From Ostreococcus lucimarinus (Eukaryota): a DNA stretch of 64,000 nt. Under the pieces are notes generated by a model. That model did not search any database. It worked only from the letters and a program-made list of their open reading frames with translations, and was not told the origin of the DNA. Below, piece by piece: positions 1,060 to 44,500 of the stretch. The translations under genes and the position numbers were made by a program. The stretch lies in the NCBI GenBank assembly GCA_000092065.1, contig CP000589.1. One strand, 5' to 3'. How positions within the stretch are numbered: position 1 is the stretch's first letter; every line of letters starts with the position of its first letter.

Positions 1060-2097
1060 TTGAGCCCCCCTACGTTCCCGACATTCCGAAATAACAGCGA
1101 TCCGCAAATGTTATGGGTTCTTTCCGGCGCGTCGACGTTTGGCGTCAGGTCGTTGGCCGAGGCCGTTACAGCGCAGCGCGCTAGACGCGTGGACGCGGCG
1201 TCCATGCGGTCGACGGCGAGGCGCGAGTGTCGTGGTGAGGACAGCGCGACGACGCGCGACGACGATGCACAAGCGCGCGGACTGGCGATGCTTGCAGACA
1301 CGCGAAAGACGGCCGGCAGTAGTCGCGAAGCGCTACGTTCGAGCATCGTCGCGCGCTTCAGCGAGGATGAGAGCCTCATGGAAACTTTCGGGCCCGTGCT
1401 CTCGATTGTCGACGCGCTCGAACGGATGTACGAGGAATATTCCGTCACGTCAACGAGTGGGACGCTTAGGATCAGAGCGCTCGGCGCCTCGGACGCGTTC
1501 GAGCTCGCCCGCTGGCGCACGTTCGCCGCGCTCGCTGTGCTGCTCGAGAACTGCGAACGCGTCGAAGTCGAGTTCATCGGTCCGACTTTGCGACGCCTTT
1601 ATCCAGGTGTGGTGTGTGAAGCGACGTCGACAGATGGTTCCGGGCGGCTGCGCATTCAGGCAATTCGTGGCTTGTATCCCGAAGTCAGCGATGTCGCGTC
1701 AGCGTCGGCATCTGAAGCAGCAGCTTACGACGTCGTCGTCGCGTTTAACGCGGGATTGCCAGTGGGCGGCGACTGGGCGCGCGCTATTGAGCGAATCGTC
1801 AGTGAGCACGTCGATGCGTTTGCAGCTAACGCACCATCGTTAGGAAACGTCGCGCCTCCTTTTTGGGTGAGCGATTACAACGAAGAAGCGATAGACATAG
1901 CCTTTGCGTTTCTTCGGCACGTCGTCCAACGTGTTCTCGAATCTCGAAACGTTGACTCGCGCGCCGAAGCTATTTATTTGGAGCCGTACTCGAACGCTGC
2001 ATACCAGTCGCGTAAACGTATAAGTTCTTGTACGGTACCGACGCACGCGAATGCTTACGCGTGCGCGTTCGTCGGCTTGTCGCGATTAGAAGAATAG
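1060..2097 (+). CDS. Hypothetical protein (345 aa)
   Basis: Long ORF with host-like GC3-rich codon usage; no family recognised. Confidence 0.35.
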   Translation: MSPPTFPTFRNNSDPQMLWVLSGASTFGVRSLAEAVTAQRARRVDAASMRSTARRECRGEDSATTRDDDAQARGLAMLADTRKTAGSSREALRSSIVARFSEDESLMETFGPVLSIVDALERMYEEYSVTSTSGTLRIRALGASDAFELARWRTFAALAVLLENCERVEVEFIGPTLRRLYPGVVCEATSTDGSGRLRIQAIRGLYPEVSDVASASASEAAAYDVVVAFNAGLPVGGDWARAIERIVSEHVDAFAANAPSLGNVAPPFWVSDYNEEAIDIAFAFLRHVVQRVLESRNVDSRAEAIYLEPYSNAAYQSRKRISSCTVPTHANAYACAFVGLSRLEE

Positions 2098-22436: not shown

Positions 22437-23630
22437 ATGCGACGCGCGTGGGAGGAACTCGCGCGACGCGCGACGCGCGACCGAGGACGCGACGCGCGAT
22501 GGGCGATGACGACGACGACGACGACGACGACGACGGATCGCGCGGTGACGGCGCGCGCGACGCGATTCGCGACGACGGCGGCGCGTGGACCGGAAATGAA
22601 ATGGCGATGCGTCGGAGCGCGCGCGATGGGAGCGCCGAGGACGCGCGCGTGCGCGTGCGCACGGTGCGCGGGCGAGCGAGGCGCGCGCGCGAGGGAGGGT
22701 GCGCGCGCGGGGGCGTCGACGGGGGGGGGGAAGGGACGGACGTTCGCGTCGTCGACGAGCGAGGCGAGCGCGCGAGCGGCGGAGGTGGTGCGAGATGAGG
22801 CGAGCGAGGCGGCGAGCGCGAAATTAGCGGCCGCGATGGCGCGGAGCGCGGACTCGTACATGCTGTTTCACCCGCAGTACGACTTGCGACAGGTGGAAAA
22901 CGTGAAACCGGCGCATCGACAGCCGAGACACGTGCGCGATTACTTGGCGTACGGGTTGGTGCAATTCTCGCGATGGTCGTTCGATAAAGTCACCGGGTAC
23001 ACGCCGAAGAAATCGCTCACCACGGATGGATGGTTGATGAGATTCATCTTTTTGGAAACCGTCGCGGGGGTGCCCGGCATGGTGGGCGCGATGCTGCGAC
23101 ACATGATGTCTCTGCGCACGCTCAAGCGCGATCACGGTTGGATTCACACCTTGCTCGAGGAAGCGGAAAACGAACGCATGCACTTGCTGACGTTCCTGAA
23201 GCTTCGCGAACCAGGGCTGATGTTTCGACTCGCCGTCCTCGGCGCGCAAGGGGTGTTTTTCAACGCCTTTTTTCTGTCGTATCTGATTTCTCCGCGAACG
23301 TGCCATCGATTCGTGGGGTATCTTGAAGAGGAAGCCGTGCGCACGTACACGCACGCGTTGCACGACATCGACGGCGACGGTCCCGCGAGCGAATGGGCGA
23401 CGATGCCCGCGCCCAAGCTCGCGATTAAATACTGGCGAATGCCCGACGACGCCACGGTGCGCGATTTAATCATCGCCGTGCGCGCCGACGAAGCGTCGCA
23501 CTCCCACGTCAATCACACCCTGTCTTCCATGGGTATTCGACAAGCCAATCCGTTCCACGTCGGTCACACCGAGTTGCCGGAGAATTTCGTCGAGCCGCCT
23601 GCGGGCTTCGTCCCGGAACACTGCCGTTAA
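22437..23630 (+). CDS. AOX: Alternative oxidase (mitochondrial di-iron quinol oxidase)
   Basis: LETVAGVPGMVGAMLRH, LEEAENERMHLLTF, and EEEAVRTY..DEASH iron-ligand motifs. Arg/Ala/Thr-rich presequence with a (GAC)n microsatellite; exact start uncertain. Confidence 0.85.
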   Translation: MRRAWEELARRATRDRGRDARWAMTTTTTTTTTDRAVTARATRFATTAARGPEMKWRCVGARAMGAPRTRACACARCAGERGARAREGARAGASTGGGKGRTFASSTSEASARAAEVVRDEASEAASAKLAAAMARSADSYMLFHPQYDLRQVENVKPAHRQPRHVRDYLAYGLVQFSRWSFDKVTGYTPKKSLTTDGWLMRFIFLETVAGVPGMVGAMLRHMMSLRTLKRDHGWIHTLLEEAENERMHLLTFLKLREPGLMFRLAVLGAQGVFFNAFFLSYLISPRTCHRFVGYLEEEAVRTYTHALHDIDGDGPASEWATMPAPKLAIKYWRMPDDATVRDLIIAVRADEASHSHVNHTLSSMGIRQANPFHVGHTELPENFVEPPAGFVPEHCR

Positions 23631-23697: not shown

Positions 23698-24073
23698 GAA
23701 ACGCCCGGCGCGTCGATTACAACAAATTTCAATTCACTGTATCCATCTCCTCGCACGCGCAGCGCAGCAATAGCAATTAATCACCGTTTTTAATTTTTAA
23801 ATTTTAAGAGCGCATCATTCGTTCGTTCGTTTGGCGGAGGACGAGAAGACGAGCGCCGCGGTTTTATTTTTCTTCGTCGTTGCGTAAATGTATTCACAAA
23901 GGTTCGGGGGACGAAAGAAACGGAAATCAAAACGATCGATCGACGAAACTCCGCCTAACGCCGCCTTTGTCCGCGCGTCGCGAGACGCGGCACGACGCTT
24001 ATTCTGTATATAAAGTAAACTCGAGAAGACGACGTCGCGTTCCGGCGACGGCGGCGTCGGACGCCGCGTTCGT

Positions 24074-24131
24074 TTCCATCGACGACGCAGCGAGCCAATA
24101 ACATCAGCCCTTTCGCTGCGTCGCGTCACGT
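24074..24131 (-). other. Candidate SECIS element in the 3'UTR of the Prx5-like gene
   Basis: Minus-strand RNA reads GUGA-CGC-GACGCAGCGA-[AAGGGCUGAUGUUAUUGGC]-UCGCUGCGUC-GUC-GA-UGG. There is a UGA/GA non-Watson-Crick quartet, a helix of about 12 bp, and an apical loop starting AA. It lies about 70 nt after the stop codon. Confidence 0.5.
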
Positions 24132-24202
24132 ACGTACGCGCACATCCTCAACCATCGCGTTGAACCTCGTCGTCTTCGTCCCGTCAAAGTCATCGCGCGC
24201 GT

Positions 24203-24820
24203 CTACAACGCCGCGATTTCCTTCAACATGTTGTCGATGCACGACGCCTCCGGTCGCGCGTCTCCCGCGGGATCGTCCGGCGCTTCGCTCACGTTCAGCA
24301 CCTTGATCACCCCATCGTCGACGTACATCGCGAAGCGTTTGCATCGCTTCGGTCCGAGCTTCGCGCACGGTCCGGGCGCGACGAGCTCCACGTCCAGCGC
24401 CTTCGTGATCACCGAATTCGGATCCGCGAGGAACGAAATGTTTGACCCTTGAATCTTTTGATCGATCGCCCACGCCCCCATGACGGCGGCGTCGTTCACG
24501 CACATCACCAGCACCTCATCGATCCCGCTCGCGCGCAGCGCGTCCTGCCCCGCGAGGTATCCCGGGACCTGACACGTCGATCACGTCGGCGTGAACGCGC
24601 CGGGCAGGCCGACGACGAGCGATTTTTTACCGGCGAGACGCGCGCGCATCTTCACCGGCGTCGGCCAGGAGGGCTCGTGCGATTGCGCGACGACGTCGGG
24701 GAATTGGTCGCCGACGGCCACCATCGCGAGCGGCGGGAAGTCGACCGCGCGCGCGAGTGACGACCGAAGGCGAACGATCCGTGGGCGATCTCGTTGGACG
24801 GACACCCGGGCCCCGGGCAA
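24203..24820 (-). CDS. Prx5-type (type II) peroxiredoxin with an in-frame TGA at the peroxidatic-Cys position: putative selenocysteine peroxiredoxin
   Basis: Upstream ORF ends ..LVVGLPGAFTPT-TGA. It continues in the same frame as STCQVPGYLAGQDALRASGIDEVLVMCVNDAAVMGAW..FLADPNSVITKAL..KRFAMYVDDGVIKVLNV. In Prx5 the catalytic motif is PGAFTP(T/G)CS..H.PG(Y/F). Here TGA (forward 24580-24582) replaces the Cys codon with no spacing change. Confidence 0.7.
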
Positions 24821-24996
24821 CCGACCGGGGGCGCGAGACGTCCATCGCGACGAGACGCGCGAGATCGAACGGCGATGGACGACGCAAAGGAGTGCGTGTA
24901 TGATTATATATTTATCTTATTAACCGTAAATAGAGTCATTCGTAGACGCATGTCACGTCGCGCGCCGGAACGGAACGCGGCGGAACGTTGGTTTCA

Positions 24997-25791
24997 TCAA
25001 TACGGATTGATGTATCCGGGGCACTGATTCCAGTTGGGCTTCAAGTCCTTCTTGATCTCGTCCGGTGCAAACTCAGTGACGCAAACGTGCGCGAAGAGCA
25101 AGGCGAAACCGGGATCGATGCCGGGCTTGGTCGTGATCTCGTGCGGGTACTTGGAAATCCAACCGCCGCGGAGCTCGGCGGTGAAGGCGGCGCACTCCCA
25201 CTTCAAGTCGGAGCCTTCGCAGCAGAAGAGATCGAATCGATCGATCGTCGTCCCATCGGCGGTCTTGATCTTGTACGAAATCTTCGTCACGTACTCCTTG
25301 TCGGTGACGTTCACATTCCGACGTTGGTGTCCTTGTTCGTCTCTGGTATAGTGCACCGACACTTGACGCGTGCAGTAGCCTTTGGCTTTGATCTTCACCG
25401 AGTACGCCCCGCCCGGGGTCTTCACCGACTTCAACTTGGCCTCGGAAAACGTGCGCCATTTCATAGAGTAAAACCTGTTCTCTCCCATCTGCATCTGTTG
25501 CATCATCTGCTTGAACATGTTCGTCACGGTTCGAACGTTGGGGTTATCGTCGCCGTCGTCCTCCGAGTCGGCTCCGAGCGACATCCCCATATCAAAGTGC
25601 GGTTTTTCGTTGTACTTCAACTTCCACAGCACTTGCCCTTTCTTCTTATCGTTCGGGTCGATTCGCGTGTAGTTTTCCAAGTCAATGTACCCAGTCGGGT
25701 CGAAGAAACCCTTCCCTTCGCGATTCAGAAACAGCCAGCGATTGTTCGGTCCCACTTCGTCTCGATAGACTTCGTAGTCCTTGTTGAACAT
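24997..25791 (-). CDS. Hypothetical protein (264 aa), lower-GC and Lys-rich; family not recognised
   Basis: Clean ORF; composition differs from neighbours. Confidence 0.4.
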   Translation of the reverse strand: MFNKDYEVYRDEVGPNNRWLFLNREGKGFFDPTGYIDLENYTRIDPNDKKKGQVLWKLKYNEKPHFDMGMSLGADSEDDGDDNPNVRTVTNMFKQMMQQMQMGENRFYSMKWRTFSEAKLKSVKTPGGAYSVKIKAKGYCTRQVSVHYTRDEQGHQRRNVNVTDKEYVTKISYKIKTADGTTIDRFDLFCCEGSDLKWECAAFTAELRGGWISKYPHEITTKPGIDPGFALLFAHVCVTEFAPDEIKKDLKPNWNQCPGYINPY

Positions 25792-26138
25792 CGAGCACGA
25801 CTTGACGACGAATTTGCTCGGTCCCTGGTGGCGCGTCGCGCGTTCGTCTCGTCGTCAGTCGTTCGTCGCGTCGCGTCGCGGCGCGCGCGTTCACTCGTTC
25901 GCCACGACGCATCCATCATCGCGCGCGACGTCCGATTCGATTCGACGGCGCCTCGGCGCGACGCGCGCGCGTCCGAGCGCGCACCTCCGGGTCGGCGATG
26001 ATGTTCGCCGGCACGTCCGGCGTGCTCTCGCATATGCTCGCGCACGCGCCCATGGCGACGACGACGACGCGACGATGCGATCAATGCGGCCATTTCTAGC
26101 TCGAGTTGCAATAGCGCCCAACTTCACTCTTCGACCCC

Positions 26139-26233
26139 ATGGCGCGTCCTCGCGTCCATCTCACTCGCGTCGCGCCCGCGTCACCGCGCGCGTCGCGTCG
26201 CGCCGAGCGTCACCCGTCTCGCGCGCGACGAAT

Positions 26234-26264
<31 letters not shown>

Positions 26265-27338
26265 TCGTCCCCGTCGCTGCTCTTTGCCACCTCCGCCGCG
26301 CTGGAGCACGTGCAGTTGGGGCACCCGGAGAGCAACGCTCGCGTGCCCGCCATCTTAGACGCCCTCGAGGCGGGCGCTCTGACCCCCGCCGCGAGACCGG
26401 GTGAGGTGTTGGAGATCACAGACGTCGTGCCGGCGACGAAAAAGGCGCTCGAGCGTGTGCACGCGAAGAATTACTGCAACGGGCTCGAGTTGTTGTGCGC
26501 CACGCGAGCGCCGACGAATTTAGACACCGCACCGACGTACTGCACGCCGTCGAGCTTTCAAGACGTGATGCTAGGCGTCGGTGCGGCGACGCGATTGGTG
26601 GATGAGGTGATCGATCGCGCGAAGGAGACGAAAGAAAAGGCGCCGAGCGCGTTTGGTTTGATACGCCCACCGGGACACCACGCGGTGCCGCGAGGGGCGA
26701 TGGGATTTTGTTTGGTCGGCACCGCGGCGGCGGCGGCGAGACACGCGCAGCTTAGAGGGCATAAAAAAGTGCTCATTTTCGATTACGACGTGCACCACGG
26801 TAACGGTACGAATGATATTTTCCGAGACGACGATTCCGTGCTGTTCATCTCCACGCACGAGGACGGGAGCTATCCGGGGACGGGGAAGATTACGGATATG
26901 GGCGAAGGCGATGGTCTGGGTGCGACTATTAATATACCTTTGCCTCCGGGAAGCGGTGATAAGGCGGTGTTGAGCGCTTTGGAAGAAATCGTCGTTCCGG
27001 CGGCGGCGCGGTTCCAACCCGACTTCATCATCGTCAGTGCCGGCTACGACGCGCACTGGCGAGATCCTCTCGCTGGGTTGACGTTTCGCACGGGAACGTA
27101 CCATCGTCTTTGCACAAAGTTGAAAGAACTGGCGAATGAGATGTGCGGCGGGAAAATCGTGTTCTTATTAGAGGGCGGGTATGATTTGGTGGGTTTGAGC
27201 GAAGGCGTCGCGGATTCTTTCCGCGCGCTCTTGGGCGACGCCTCAACGGACGTCGGCGAGATTCCCGGGCTGAGAGACGAGCCCGATGATAAAGTGCGAA
27301 ATGTTCTCACCGAAGTCAAGGCGATGCATCAAGTTTAG
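26139..27338 (+). CDS. Histone deacetylase / acetoin-utilisation family amidohydrolase (HDA14-like), organelle-targeted
   Basis: RPPGHHA, FDYDVHHGNGT, ISAGYDAH motifs; N-terminal transit-like peptide. Confidence 0.85.
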
Positions 27339-42307: not shown

Positions 42308-44500
42308 ATGACGCTGGCGCGGCGCGGGGCGCGCGCGATGACGTCGATCGCGTCCACGAGCGCGTCGGCGGCGTCGATCGCGCGCGCACGCGATGGTTTG
42401 CGATTGAATGCGCGACTGGGACGCGCGGTGGATGCGCTTTCGCGGGACGAACACCGCGCGTTTCGCGCGAAGGCGATCGCGTTGGCGCGACAGCGCGTGG
42501 GAATGATGACGTCGTATGATGCGGTCACGGAAGAGGCGCTGCGACGGGCGGTGCGGGACGCGTTCGGGGGCGAGCGAGGGGTTCGCGTAGGACGACGCGT
42601 CTCGCGGCGGTTCGACGCGCTGCGCGAAGCGCTGAAAAGATCGAGCGGCGGACGCGTGGTGAACGCGTTGGAGACGAGCGCGGGTGAATTAGATGCGAAA
42701 CAACTCGATGGACGATCAGCTTCGGAGGTAGGCGCAACGAGAGGGCTGGAGGGCGGCGCGCTCGCTTCGTGGGACGACGACATCGAGTGGGGCGCGCGGT
42801 TAAGCAAGCGAAAGCTGCGTAGAGTGGAATCGCCCGTCGACGTCGAGCGAGCGGGAGAAAAATCGTCGGTGGAGGTGAAATATGACGAACTCGATGCCGC
42901 TGTGTACGCAGTGATGCGAAGTCCGATGACGATGGGGGCATTGAAGAGGATTTTGTACGAGACGCGCGATCGCTTGGGCACGAGTTTCAAGCCGAGGAGC
43001 GTTTTAGATTTTGGGTCGGGGCCGGTCCCGACGACTCTGTTCGCCGTGCGCGCGGTTTTCGGAGATGATGTTGGCACGCATGGCGGGCGTGATACCGATG
43101 TTAAGGTGGCGTTCGTCGATAGCAACCCAGGGATGATGCGTTTTGCGAGACGCGTGACTGGATACGCGAAGAATATAGAGCAAGAACGTCGAACGACCGC
43201 GGCGCTTGAACGCGCGTCGACGACGTCAGAGGACAAAATAGGTGTTAGTGAAGAGCTCAGCGACGTTTTAGACGACGTCGACGCGTCTGTGACGCGAGTA
43301 TTGGACTTTAGCGATTTCGAAGCGGTGGAGGATGAGCGCCACGGGTTTCGGCCCGCGAGCGCGTTGAGATTGAAAACGCCTCACCCTTGGCACGAAAGTG
43401 AAGGCATCCGCACGAGCGCGAGTCTTCGTGGCGCCAATCGACGAGGTGGATTTGACGTCGTTGTTTCGTCGTACGCGCTGGGCGAAATTCCCGATAATCA
43501 CGTCGTCAACGCGCGCGGACGCGAAGTGCGAAATCAACGACAGCTCGACGTAACGATTCGTCAGTTATGGGATAAAGTCGCTCCGGGTGGCATCTTAGTC
43601 TTGGCCGAACCTGGAACACCGCGAGGGAGCTTACTCATTCGTCGCGCGAGAGCGATGCTTCTCGACGTTGCTCGACGCGATATGGAACAGGACGCGCGAA
43701 GACTCGACTTTGAACCGAGCGAAGACGCCGTGGAGGCGTACGTCGTGGCGCCTTGCCAGCACGACAAAGCGTGTCCGCTCAAGGATGTCAACGCTGAGGA
43801 TGGCTTTTCGACGTGGTGCCACTTTCCTCAGCGAACGCTGCGAAGCGCGTACGTGCGAGAAATGAAACATGGCGCCAGACCATACCAGGATGAAAAGTTT
43901 TCATACGTCGTACTGCGCAAGATGCGTCGAAGCGCGGCGCGCAGAGACGCCGAGCGCGCGACGCAAGCCGCTCGCGACGCGCTCGCGGCGCAAAAATCCG
44001 CGACTCCGAACGACGAAAGAAACGGAGACGAAGAAGACGAAGAAGACGAAGACGAAGAATATCACGAAAGTCTCGCGCGCGAGTCTTTCGAGGATTGGTC
44101 GCGCGTCATTCGTCAGCCCATGAAGCGTAAAGGCCACGTCGTCTTTGAGCTCTGCGCCCCCTCTGGCGAACTCGAGCGCGTCACCGTCGCCAGATCTCAC
44201 GGCGATCTCATCGGCCGTGACGGCTACAAGTACGCCCGCAAGCTTCGTTGGGGTGATTTATGGCCCTTCACGCACAAAACCGTCGTCAAACCCGGCGATC
44301 AGCGCGCGTTCGAGCTCGAGGCTTCGCGTTTCGAGAGCGACTTTCTTCGGTCTCTCCGTCGCGACCGCGCCGCGCGTCTCGTCGCGTCTCCCGCGCCTCT
44401 CGACCCGATCGCGCGCGACGAGATCGAGATCGAGCTCGACGACGACGAGCTCGACGACGAGCTCGTCGATCTTTGGAATAGCCGCGCCGGCGCGCGCTAG
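42308..44500 (+). CDS. Rsm22/METTL17-like mitochondrial methyltransferase
   Basis: Class I MT motif VLDFGSGPVPT. Cys cluster CQHDKACPL..WCHFPQR typical of Rsm22. Acidic insert. Confidence 0.55.
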   Translation: MTLARRGARAMTSIASTSASAASIARARDGLRLNARLGRAVDALSRDEHRAFRAKAIALARQRVGMMTSYDAVTEEALRRAVRDAFGGERGVRVGRRVSRRFDALREALKRSSGGRVVNALETSAGELDAKQLDGRSASEVGATRGLEGGALASWDDDIEWGARLSKRKLRRVESPVDVERAGEKSSVEVKYDELDAAVYAVMRSPMTMGALKRILYETRDRLGTSFKPRSVLDFGSGPVPTTLFAVRAVFGDDVGTHGGRDTDVKVAFVDSNPGMMRFARRVTGYAKNIEQERRTTAALERASTTSEDKIGVSEELSDVLDDVDASVTRVLDFSDFEAVEDERHGFRPASALRLKTPHPWHESEGIRTSASLRGANRRGGFDVVVSSYALGEIPDNHVVNARGREVRNQRQLDVTIRQLWDKVAPGGILVLAEPGTPRGSLLIRRARAMLLDVARRDMEQDARRLDFEPSEDAVEAYVVAPCQHDKACPLKDVNAEDGFSTWCHFPQRTLRSAYVREMKHGARPYQDEKFSYVVLRKMRRSAARRDAERATQAARDALAAQKSATPNDERNGDEEDEEDEDEEYHESLARESFEDWSRVIRQPMKRKGHVVFELCAPSGELERVTVARSHGDLIGRDGYKYARKLRWGDLWPFTHKTVVKPGDQRAFELEASRFESDFLRSLRRDRAARLVASPAPLDPIARDEIEIELDDDELDDELVDLWNSRAGAR

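Follow-up and report, generated by a model that had tools for sequence, protein, structure and literature searches.

An in-frame TGA in the middle of what otherwise looks like one coding sequence raises an obvious question: does the codon end the protein, or is it read as an amino acid? The question is posed by a minus-strand locus in a 64,000-nucleotide stretch of Ostreococcus lucimarinus DNA (contig CP000589.1 of assembly GCA_000092065.1), hereafter called the window. A preliminary description, drawn from the letters of the sequence, took two neighboring open reading frames (ORFs) for the halves of a single Prx5/PrxII-type peroxiredoxin, split by a TGA where the peroxidatic cysteine (Cp) should be, and proposed that selenocysteine (Sec) replaces this cysteine with the help of a SECIS-like hairpin in the 3' UTR. 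As discussed below, we regard it as nearly certain that the locus is a nuclear gene for a Sec-containing Prx5/PrxII-type peroxiredoxin, with its UGA recoded by way of a form-2 SECIS in the 3' UTR. The gene is not new; it is the O. lucimarinus Sec-peroxiredoxin that has already been published.

One reading frame interrupted by a TGA

The two ORFs, 24581..24820 (ending ...LVVGLPGAFTPT-TGA) and 24203..24514, lie on the minus strand in a common frame. Translation of that strand across the TGA gives ...GLPGAFTPT*STCQVPGYLAGQ..., and in its longer form the joined frame runs ...KKSLVVGLPGAFTPT-TGA-STCQVPGYLAGQDALRASGIDEV...NMLKEIAAL-TAG. The frame is continuous but for the TGA at 24583..24581, and the two ORFs are indeed halves of one peroxiredoxin, as the preliminary description had it (Table 1). 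Its upper boundary at 24820 did not survive, lying some 96 nt beyond the real start. The TTG found there is merely the edge of a mechanical ORF, and the conserved ATG lies at 24724..24722. Sequence upstream of this ATG is unconserved, and because the orthologues show stops in that region, the ATG rather than the TTG is taken as the true start. Indeed, MV(A/N)VGD forms the N-terminus in all five of the orthologues that are 522 nt long.

Sequencing error does not account for the TGA, since six independent metagenome assemblies agree over 665 nt that include both the coding sequence (CDS) and the SECIS. These six copies are all identical to the window and say nothing about polymorphism in the population. 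Nor does the codon reflect a general reassignment: TGA terminates 12 of the 30 long ATG-initiated ORFs in the 64-kb window, and is thus an ordinary stop here. An MMETSP transcript from O. 'lucimarinus' (UniRef A0A7R9T063) encodes the C-terminal part of the peroxiredoxin. As for the surroundings of the gene, an HDAC ORF (26139..27338) lies two genes away and agrees exactly with XP_001419469.1 from O. lucimarinus CCE9901, and further ORFs of the window share 90% clusters with CCE9901 proteins.

Table 1. Features of the peroxiredoxin locus and its 3' UTR hairpin (window coordinates)
Feature	Position	Strand	Basis and remarks
Predicted Sec-peroxiredoxin CDS	24203..24724	-	522 nt; 173 residues + TAG; predicted Sec = residue 48; intron-free
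Start ATG	24724..24722	-	MVAVGDQFP; Met common to all orthologues
UGA codon 48, peroxidatic (Cp) position of PGAFTPT-U-S	24581..24583	-	Alignment to Cp Cys; orthologues
True stop TAG	24203..24205	-	C-terminus ...NMLKEIAAL agrees with published sequence
SECIS element, form 2 with mini-stem, 3' UTR	24067..24137	-	MFE fold, covariation, pattern match
SECIS core, 5' side: G + UGA (GUGA)	24126..24129	-	UGA invariant (8/8)
Helix II, 5' arm GCGACGCAGCGA, 12 nt	24113..24124	-	Pairs with 24082..24093; covariation
Unpaired AA, apical bulge	24111..24112	-	Invariant columns A26, A27; 13 nt past UGA
Mini-stem (helix III) GCUGAU / AUUGGC, GUU loop	24094..24108	-	Folds; three shared pairs
Helix II, 3' arm UCGCUGCGUCGU	24082..24093	-	Covariation
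SECIS core, 3' side: GA (24080..24079) + U	24078..24080	-	GA 8/8, next U 7/8
AAUAAG, possible polyadenylation signal	23998..24003	-	About 64 nt beyond the SECIS; inferred by reading the sequence

Protein family and active site

For searches of Pfam and of solved structures, a cysteine was placed at codon 48. The resulting sequence matches the Redoxin family (PF08534) with an E-value of 6.5e-22 (78.4 bits against a cut-off of 26.6) and AhpC/TSA (PF00578) with 5.4e-06. Nearly all of its 27 PDB matches are Prx5, type II or Ahp1-type peroxiredoxins, the top relatives being 3uma (8.7e-32), 4f82 (3.7e-26) and human PRDX5 (1.8e-25), and the family alignment thereby bears out the Prx5 assignment. The motif PGAFTPT-x-S aligns with PGAFTPTCS in 3uma and 4f82 and with PGAFTPGCS in PRDX5. 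Since the UGA occupies the column of the Cp cysteine in these structure alignments, codon 48 is the peroxidatic position, just as had been proposed. Other parts of the active site are in place as well. The loop threonine T45 is invariant in an alignment of 11 sequences, as are R127 and R130 of the motif RCKRF, the counterpart of which in PRDX5 is RLKRF. From its sequence, then, the predicted protein is a peroxiredoxin of the Prx5/PrxII type.

Two further cysteines deserve mention. C51, in the motif U-S-T-C, is kept in Mamiellophyceae-type sequences and absent from diatoms and from most other Sec forms. C161 falls two columns from the resolving cysteine of PRDX5 in a MAFFT alignment for which a PRDX5 sequence was entered by hand. 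The label that UniRef attaches to the C-terminal fragment is 'glutaredoxin-dependent peroxiredoxin'. The Ostreococcus protein is probably cytosolic, because it has no N-terminal extension; a Bathycoccus-like homologue carries 77 additional N-terminal residues.

Conservation of the UGA codon

Many homologues in the protein databases are 98-111 aa long and cover only the region past codon 48, and the DNA behind nine such clusters was examined. Wherever this DNA extends far enough, codon 48 is TGA (L001, L016, L004, L007, L012, L014, L017, L018 and L010/L011), so that the choice between Cys and Sec codons, for which the preliminary description had looked to related algae, falls on TGA throughout. 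Identity to the window protein over the C-terminal part is 86% for L001, 84% for L016, 80% for L004, the sequence of which agrees with the published O. tauri row, and 78% for L007. The pair L010/L011 (60% over the full length) is AT-rich and Bathycoccus-like, and comes from mRNA-sized contigs of 1.15-1.19 kb that include 5' and 3' UTRs and retain the TGA in frame.

Codon-by-codon comparison of the five Ostreococcus-type orthologues found each to be exactly 522 nt long, with no indels. Across the 47 codons that precede the UGA, the synonymous and non-synonymous changes number 12 and 5 between the window and L001, and 13 and 5 between the window and L004. Past the UGA the corresponding counts are 34 and 16 (L001) and 31 and 21 (L004), and on both sides synonymous changes equal or exceed non-synonymous ones in most pairwise comparisons. 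Because the ratio before the UGA resembles that after it, both halves are under purifying selection as parts of one protein.

A SECIS element in the 3' UTR

The SECIS-like hairpin had been placed some 70 nt past the TAG. Its onset is at 73 nt, and about 450 nt separate the SECIS from the UGA codon; the GUGA/GA core, the 12-bp helix and the AA have all been confirmed, with covariation added. In RNA order the hairpin reads GUGA C GCGACGCAGCGA AA GG GCUGAU GUU AUUGGC UCGCUGCGUCGU C GA U. A C.C mismatch follows the GUGA, and then come 12 pairs: G.U, C-G and GACGCAGCGA/UCGCUGCGUC. The mini-stem is 6 bp long in the window sequence. Spacings are 12-13 nt from UGA to AA and 30-31 nt from AA to GA. The base before the UGA of the quartet is G in seven of eight sequences and A in the eighth, L016, which carries AUGA, the canonical form, where the window has GUGA. 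A lower stem (helix I) is seen in individual folds and is out of register across the orthologue alignment. The element lies in the 3' UTR ahead of the AAUAAG and takes an equal position in all orthologues, where motifs resembling AAUAAA or AAUAAG follow the SECIS at a comparable distance.

How readily might such a hairpin arise by chance? The primary pattern of SECISearch (NTGA, 10-13 nt, AA, 15-39 nt, GA), a rule taken from Lobanov et al. 2007 (PMC2375036), was re-implemented and run over both strands of the 64 kb, and a locus counted only if 9 or more of 10 helix pairs could form. A single locus came up, the hairpin itself, in which all 10 of the 10 pairs form. In first-order Markov shuffles, matches at the same threshold averaged 0.59 +/- 0.78 per window, and about 0.001 chance matches would be expected in a 300-nt 3' UTR.

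Comparison among orthologues is more telling. The RNA alignment comprised eight sequences; left out were L017, whose 3' UTR ends at 56 nt, L018, where the SECIS is unclear and the contig end near, and L019, which has a probable intron beside the Sec codon. The UGA with its following two bases, the AA and the GA are invariant. RNAalifold recovers the helix unaided, with compensatory changes in 11 of 16 pairs. A named structure of 10 helix II pairs and three mini-stem pairs was then scored: 93.3% of its cells are paired, 10 of the 13 pairs are altered on both sides, and compensatory change occurs in 27 cells, values matched by none of 500 shuffles. Sliding the 3' arm by 1-3 columns brings the paired cells down to 22-47%. 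Taken separately, the 10 pairs of helix II have 93.8% of cells paired, with double changes in 8, and the three shared pairs of the mini-stem 91.7%, with covariation in 2. A covariance model built from the orthologues scores 64.5 bits at 24067..24137, a figure that speaks to uniqueness and not to independent detection, the window sequence being in the model. It found no second SECIS in the window; the next match, at 42584-42647, reaches 16.7 bits and lacks the UGA and the AA.

Other searches returned less. The SECIS families of Rfam 15 gave no match at E-values up to 10, either in 1.3 kb of sequence or in the 101-nt hairpin, and such Rfam matches as appeared at that threshold were at chance level and to unrelated families. 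We treat this miss as a limit of the model rather than as absence of a SECIS, because the covariation and the SECISearch pattern both back the element; it lowers the claim of a match to Rfam SECIS_1 and leaves the claim of function untouched. The seed of SECIS_1 probably consists mostly of animal elements of the AUGA type. The z-score of the 153-nt 3' UTR fold (-1.56) is uninformative, the context being GC-rich. No tRNA, and therefore no tRNA-Sec, turned up when the window was scanned for tRNA genes, and the remaining Sec machinery (SBP2, eEFSec, SecS and SPS) is likewise absent within the window. All told, the comparative evidence supports the assignment of the hairpin as a 3' UTR SECIS.

Alternative readings of the codon

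Readthrough of the UGA might proceed without selenium, with Cys, Trp or Arg inserted either constitutively or when selenium is scarce. Mammals do insert Cys at Sec codons under selenium limitation, and among the best 120 homologues W is recorded at this column in 37 and R in two. That said, the single W entry checked (P0001) proved to have TGA as its underlying codon, translated with a different code table, and peroxidatic chemistry would be impossible for either Trp or Arg. The conserved SECIS favors Sec, and TGA acts as a normal stop elsewhere in the window. Selenium-free decoding is the alternative that fares best, and a very improbable one.

The UGA might instead simply terminate translation, yielding a peptide of 47 residues, a distinct C-terminal protein started internally, or both. 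Products of 100-111 aa that begin at internal Met or Val codons are indeed present in public protein sets. The internal starts vary among orthologues, however (M at MLVMC, MKSAG or MRDAN), and for that reason are best seen as artefacts of the gene callers. Each fragment would lack an active site as well as a complete thioredoxin fold, and termination would leave a conserved SECIS without a role. The chance that UGA serves here as a stop seems slight indeed.

Some annotated gene models remove the TGA within an intron: those of Pavlovales sp. CCMP2436, Prasinoderma coloniale, Chrysophaeum taylorii and Nitzschia inconspicua pass directly from ...KK(T/S)IVV to PGYL.... Yet the stretch that they skip holds the invariant active-site motif GLPGAFTPT-x-S, which is indispensable to the enzyme. 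Moreover, the mRNA-sized contigs L010 and L011, assumed to be of transcriptome origin, keep the in-frame TGA, and the published curated sequence retains the segment, with a U. Splicing of this kind is scarcely credible.

No more credible is a pseudogene, that is, a decaying peroxiredoxin gene with a nonsense mutation and a coincidental hairpin, for though the locus comes out of gene callers in two pieces and Rfam reports no SECIS (E up to 10), the TGA stands at the identical codon in at least nine divergent lineages, frameshifts and length changes are absent, purifying selection acts on both halves, the hairpin covaries and the presumed O. tauri orthologue is an abundant protein, and the conservation data effectively refute this reading.

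The Sec-for-Cys reading first put forward for this locus is thus upheld by the conserved TGA, the purifying selection on both of its sides and the covarying SECIS, from which we infer Sec insertion in the O. lucimarinus protein.

A proposed mechanism for decoding and catalysis

In eukaryotic Sec decoding, SBP2 attaches to the kink-turn of the SECIS and delivers eEFSec, together with Sec-tRNA(Sec), to the UGA. The O. lucimarinus gene would give rise to one unspliced mRNA with a frame of 174 codons and, as in other eukaryotes, its SECIS would draw these three factors to the ribosome, so that UGA codon 48 would be recoded to selenocysteine. The selenolate at residue 48, standing in place of the thiolate of the peroxidatic cysteine, would attack the peroxide and become a selenenic acid, which in turn would be reduced back through a selenenylsulfide. 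Candidate partners for that bond are the internal C51 (U-S-T-C) or C161, glutathione/glutaredoxin, or thioredoxin.

A particular form of this chemistry comes to mind because U-S-T-C51 is conserved in the Mamiellophyceae-type orthologues and missing from most other members of the clade, whether Sec or Cys forms. Sec48 might be resolved locally, through a thioredoxin-like UxxC selenenylsulfide with C51, and not by the distal cysteine or the glutathione route. We consider this rather unlikely. If true, UxxC resolution would amount to a variation on the catalytic mechanism of peroxiredoxins, and no description of it was found in the literature.

The enzyme in sequence databases

The preliminary description had also anticipated that the gene would be misannotated, and the public sets do hold C-terminal fragments of 100-111 aa alongside Trp-substituted and spliced-out versions. 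Among the best 120 homologues, 22 have Cys at the codon-48 column and the others are UGA-type or truncated. Besides the 37 entries with W and the two with R at the Cp column, about 46 are fragments that begin past codon 48, and 3-4 are gene models that omit the active-site segment. Sec forms thus appear to outnumber Cys forms among the closest marine relatives, by roughly 85-90 to 22 of the best 120. Given such a majority, counts of plankton peroxiredoxins and selenoproteins that are taken from automatic gene calls will mislead.

The practical value of the present analysis is therefore one of annotation. In the NCBI, UniRef and metagenome sets that were searched, this abundant antioxidant enzyme is present mostly as stumps of 100-111 aa, and their other entries show Trp at the active site or have the active site spliced out. 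To the biology it adds nothing beyond the 2007 publication; of the 29 selenoproteins counted in O. lucimarinus, one has been found again.

The published gene and related literature

The survey of Lobanov et al. (2007, Genome Biol 8:R198, PMC2375036) put the number of selenoproteins at 26 for O. tauri and at 29 for O. lucimarinus, among them one Sec-peroxiredoxin in the former and three in the latter. In its Additional file 2, the O. lucimarinus row has U at codon 48 and reads ...GLPGAFTPTUSTCQVPGYLAGQDALRAS... and ...DARPEASCIDNMLKEIAAL, with the C-terminal stretch of the same row given as ...RCKRFAMYVDDGVIKVLNVSEAPDDPAGDARPEASCIDNMLKEIAAL (PMC2375036). Text-recognition errors aside, this row equals the window sequence both in the neighborhood of the Sec codon and across the final 47 residues. 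The same authors assigned the algal protein to the 'homologs of bacterial selenoproteins' and verified a distinct selenoprotein pattern in O. tauri by 75Se labelling (PMC2375036); a Sec tRNA has also been demonstrated for O. tauri in the literature.

Later work has extended this picture. PRX is among the most widespread Sec proteins of algae (Jiang et al. 2020, PMC7539508). Kay et al. (2022, PMC8834552) used proteomics to quantify ostta09g00190, a selenoprotein of O. tauri named 'Peroxiredoxin', and its abundance is among the higher values in their table. Because O. tauri has just one Sec-peroxiredoxin, ostta09g00190 would be the orthologue of the window gene, of the L004 type.

Comparison with known systems

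Set against the Sec-peroxiredoxin reported by Lobanov et al. (2007), with its O. tauri counterpart, the locus shows no difference of substance; the gene in O. lucimarinus is identical. Both also share the style of SECIS described as typical of Ostreococcus, with its long mini-stem and a G ahead of the quartet (PMC2375036), a likeness drawn from the published description.

Human PRDX5 (1hd2/1h4o) and the plant type II peroxiredoxin (1tp9) resemble the window protein in fold family, in the PGAFTPxC(U)S loop and in the active-site Thr and Arg, and their structures are matched with E-values of 1.8e-25 to 3e-24. In contrast to both, the window protein has a predicted Sec for the peroxidatic Cys, a Cys three residues past it (UxxC) and an additional C-terminal extension, DDPAGD...SC(I/V)xNML. 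Its candidate resolving residue is not exactly aligned with C151 of PRDX5. The bacterial Prx5-like proteins 3uma and 4f82 are the closest solved sequences, but those have Cys. In bacterial Sec forms, the SECIS would lie within the CDS directly after the UGA and would not be a kink-turn element of the 3' UTR.

With the canonical eukaryotic SECIS (RF00031, form 2), the hairpin shares the UGA/GA quartet, a helix II of about 12 bp and location in the 3' UTR, as well as an unpaired AA 10-13 nt from the quartet and an extra mini-stem. It departs from that canonical form in the two respects that mark Ostreococcus elements: the quartet is preceded by G, not A, and the mini-stem is long.

Active site and public records of the family

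The selenocysteine of the Ostreococcus lucimarinus peroxiredoxin (Sec-Prx) belongs to a UxxC arrangement, Sec48-S-T-C51, which every Ostreococcus-, Bathycoccus- or Micromonas-like orthologue keeps. Most other relatives, those with Sec as well as those with Cys, have K, R or other residues in its place.

The family is misrepresented in public protein sets. Trp stands at the active site in 37 of the top 120 protein homologues, and about 46 of the 120 are C-terminal stumps. The Trp entries represent TGA translated with another code, and in the one checked (P0001) the codon was confirmed to be TGA. Elsewhere, the Sec-containing active-site loop has been spliced out or skipped in the gene models of Pavlovales sp. 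CCMP2436, Prasinoderma coloniale, Chrysophaeum taylorii and Nitzschia inconspicua.

Coordinates of features related to Sec-Prx and its SECIS element
Feature	Sequence	Position	Strand	Remarks
UxxC, residues 48-51 of Sec-Prx	window	24572-24583	-	Sec48-S-T-C51
264-aa ORF	window	24997-25791	-	immediately upstream of Sec-Prx
Alternative oxidase (AOX) gene	window	22437-23630	+	convergent with Sec-Prx; PF01786 on matching metagenome contigs
Runner-up SECIS covariance-model match	window	42584-42647	+	16.7 bits, E about 0.03
SECIS of L016	L016	about 1590-1660		3'UTR of 84%-identical orthologue
Bathycoccus-like Sec-Prx	L010	111-863

Variation in the SECIS element

When the orthologous SECIS elements were compared, the homologue-bearing contig L016 was found to read AUGA, whereas the window and six others read GUGA. 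The base preceding the quartet is subject to natural A/G variation within one orthologous element. Lobanov 2007 (PMC2375036) found a single SECIS of the ATGA type in each Ostreococcus genome, in other genes. The runner-up covariance-model match, a GC-rich hairpin within an RSM22-like ORF, lacks the UGA and AA signatures and is judged a chance match.

Gene neighbourhood

The gene order AOX - Prx - 264 aa - HDAC is common to all Ostreococcus-type contigs, and the 3' ends of AOX and Sec-Prx share a 572-nt intergenic region. In the mechanically called AOX ORF, the N-terminus is long, rich in Ala, Arg and Thr, and contains ten consecutive Thr. The 264-aa ORF, modeled by NCBI as 298 aa, has no Pfam family on record.

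The products of the 264-aa and HDAC genes are each represented in O. lucimarinus by two GenBank/RefSeq accession pairs (ABO97972/ABP01222 and ABO97762/ABP01312; window 24997-27338), which suggests that the CCE9901 records contain two copies of this segment; in that case, Sec-Prx may be duplicated as well. The distance from the HDAC gene to the 264-aa and Prx genes varies by up to about 240 bp among metagenome contigs of O. lucimarinus type that are identical apart from this spacing (L020-L025, compared with window positions 24725-26138); these differences point to an indel polymorphism in the intergenic region on the HDAC side.

Sec-Prx in other lineages

In a more distant homologue (L019 1-320), the frame is broken just upstream of STCQVPGF and a PGAFTPT-like segment lies in another frame, suggesting an intron adjoining the Sec codon. 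The Bathycoccus-like Sec-Prx carries a 77-residue Ser/Thr/Gln-rich N-terminal extension that may direct the same enzyme to an organelle in this sister genus, whereas the Ostreococcus Sec-Prx has no such extension.
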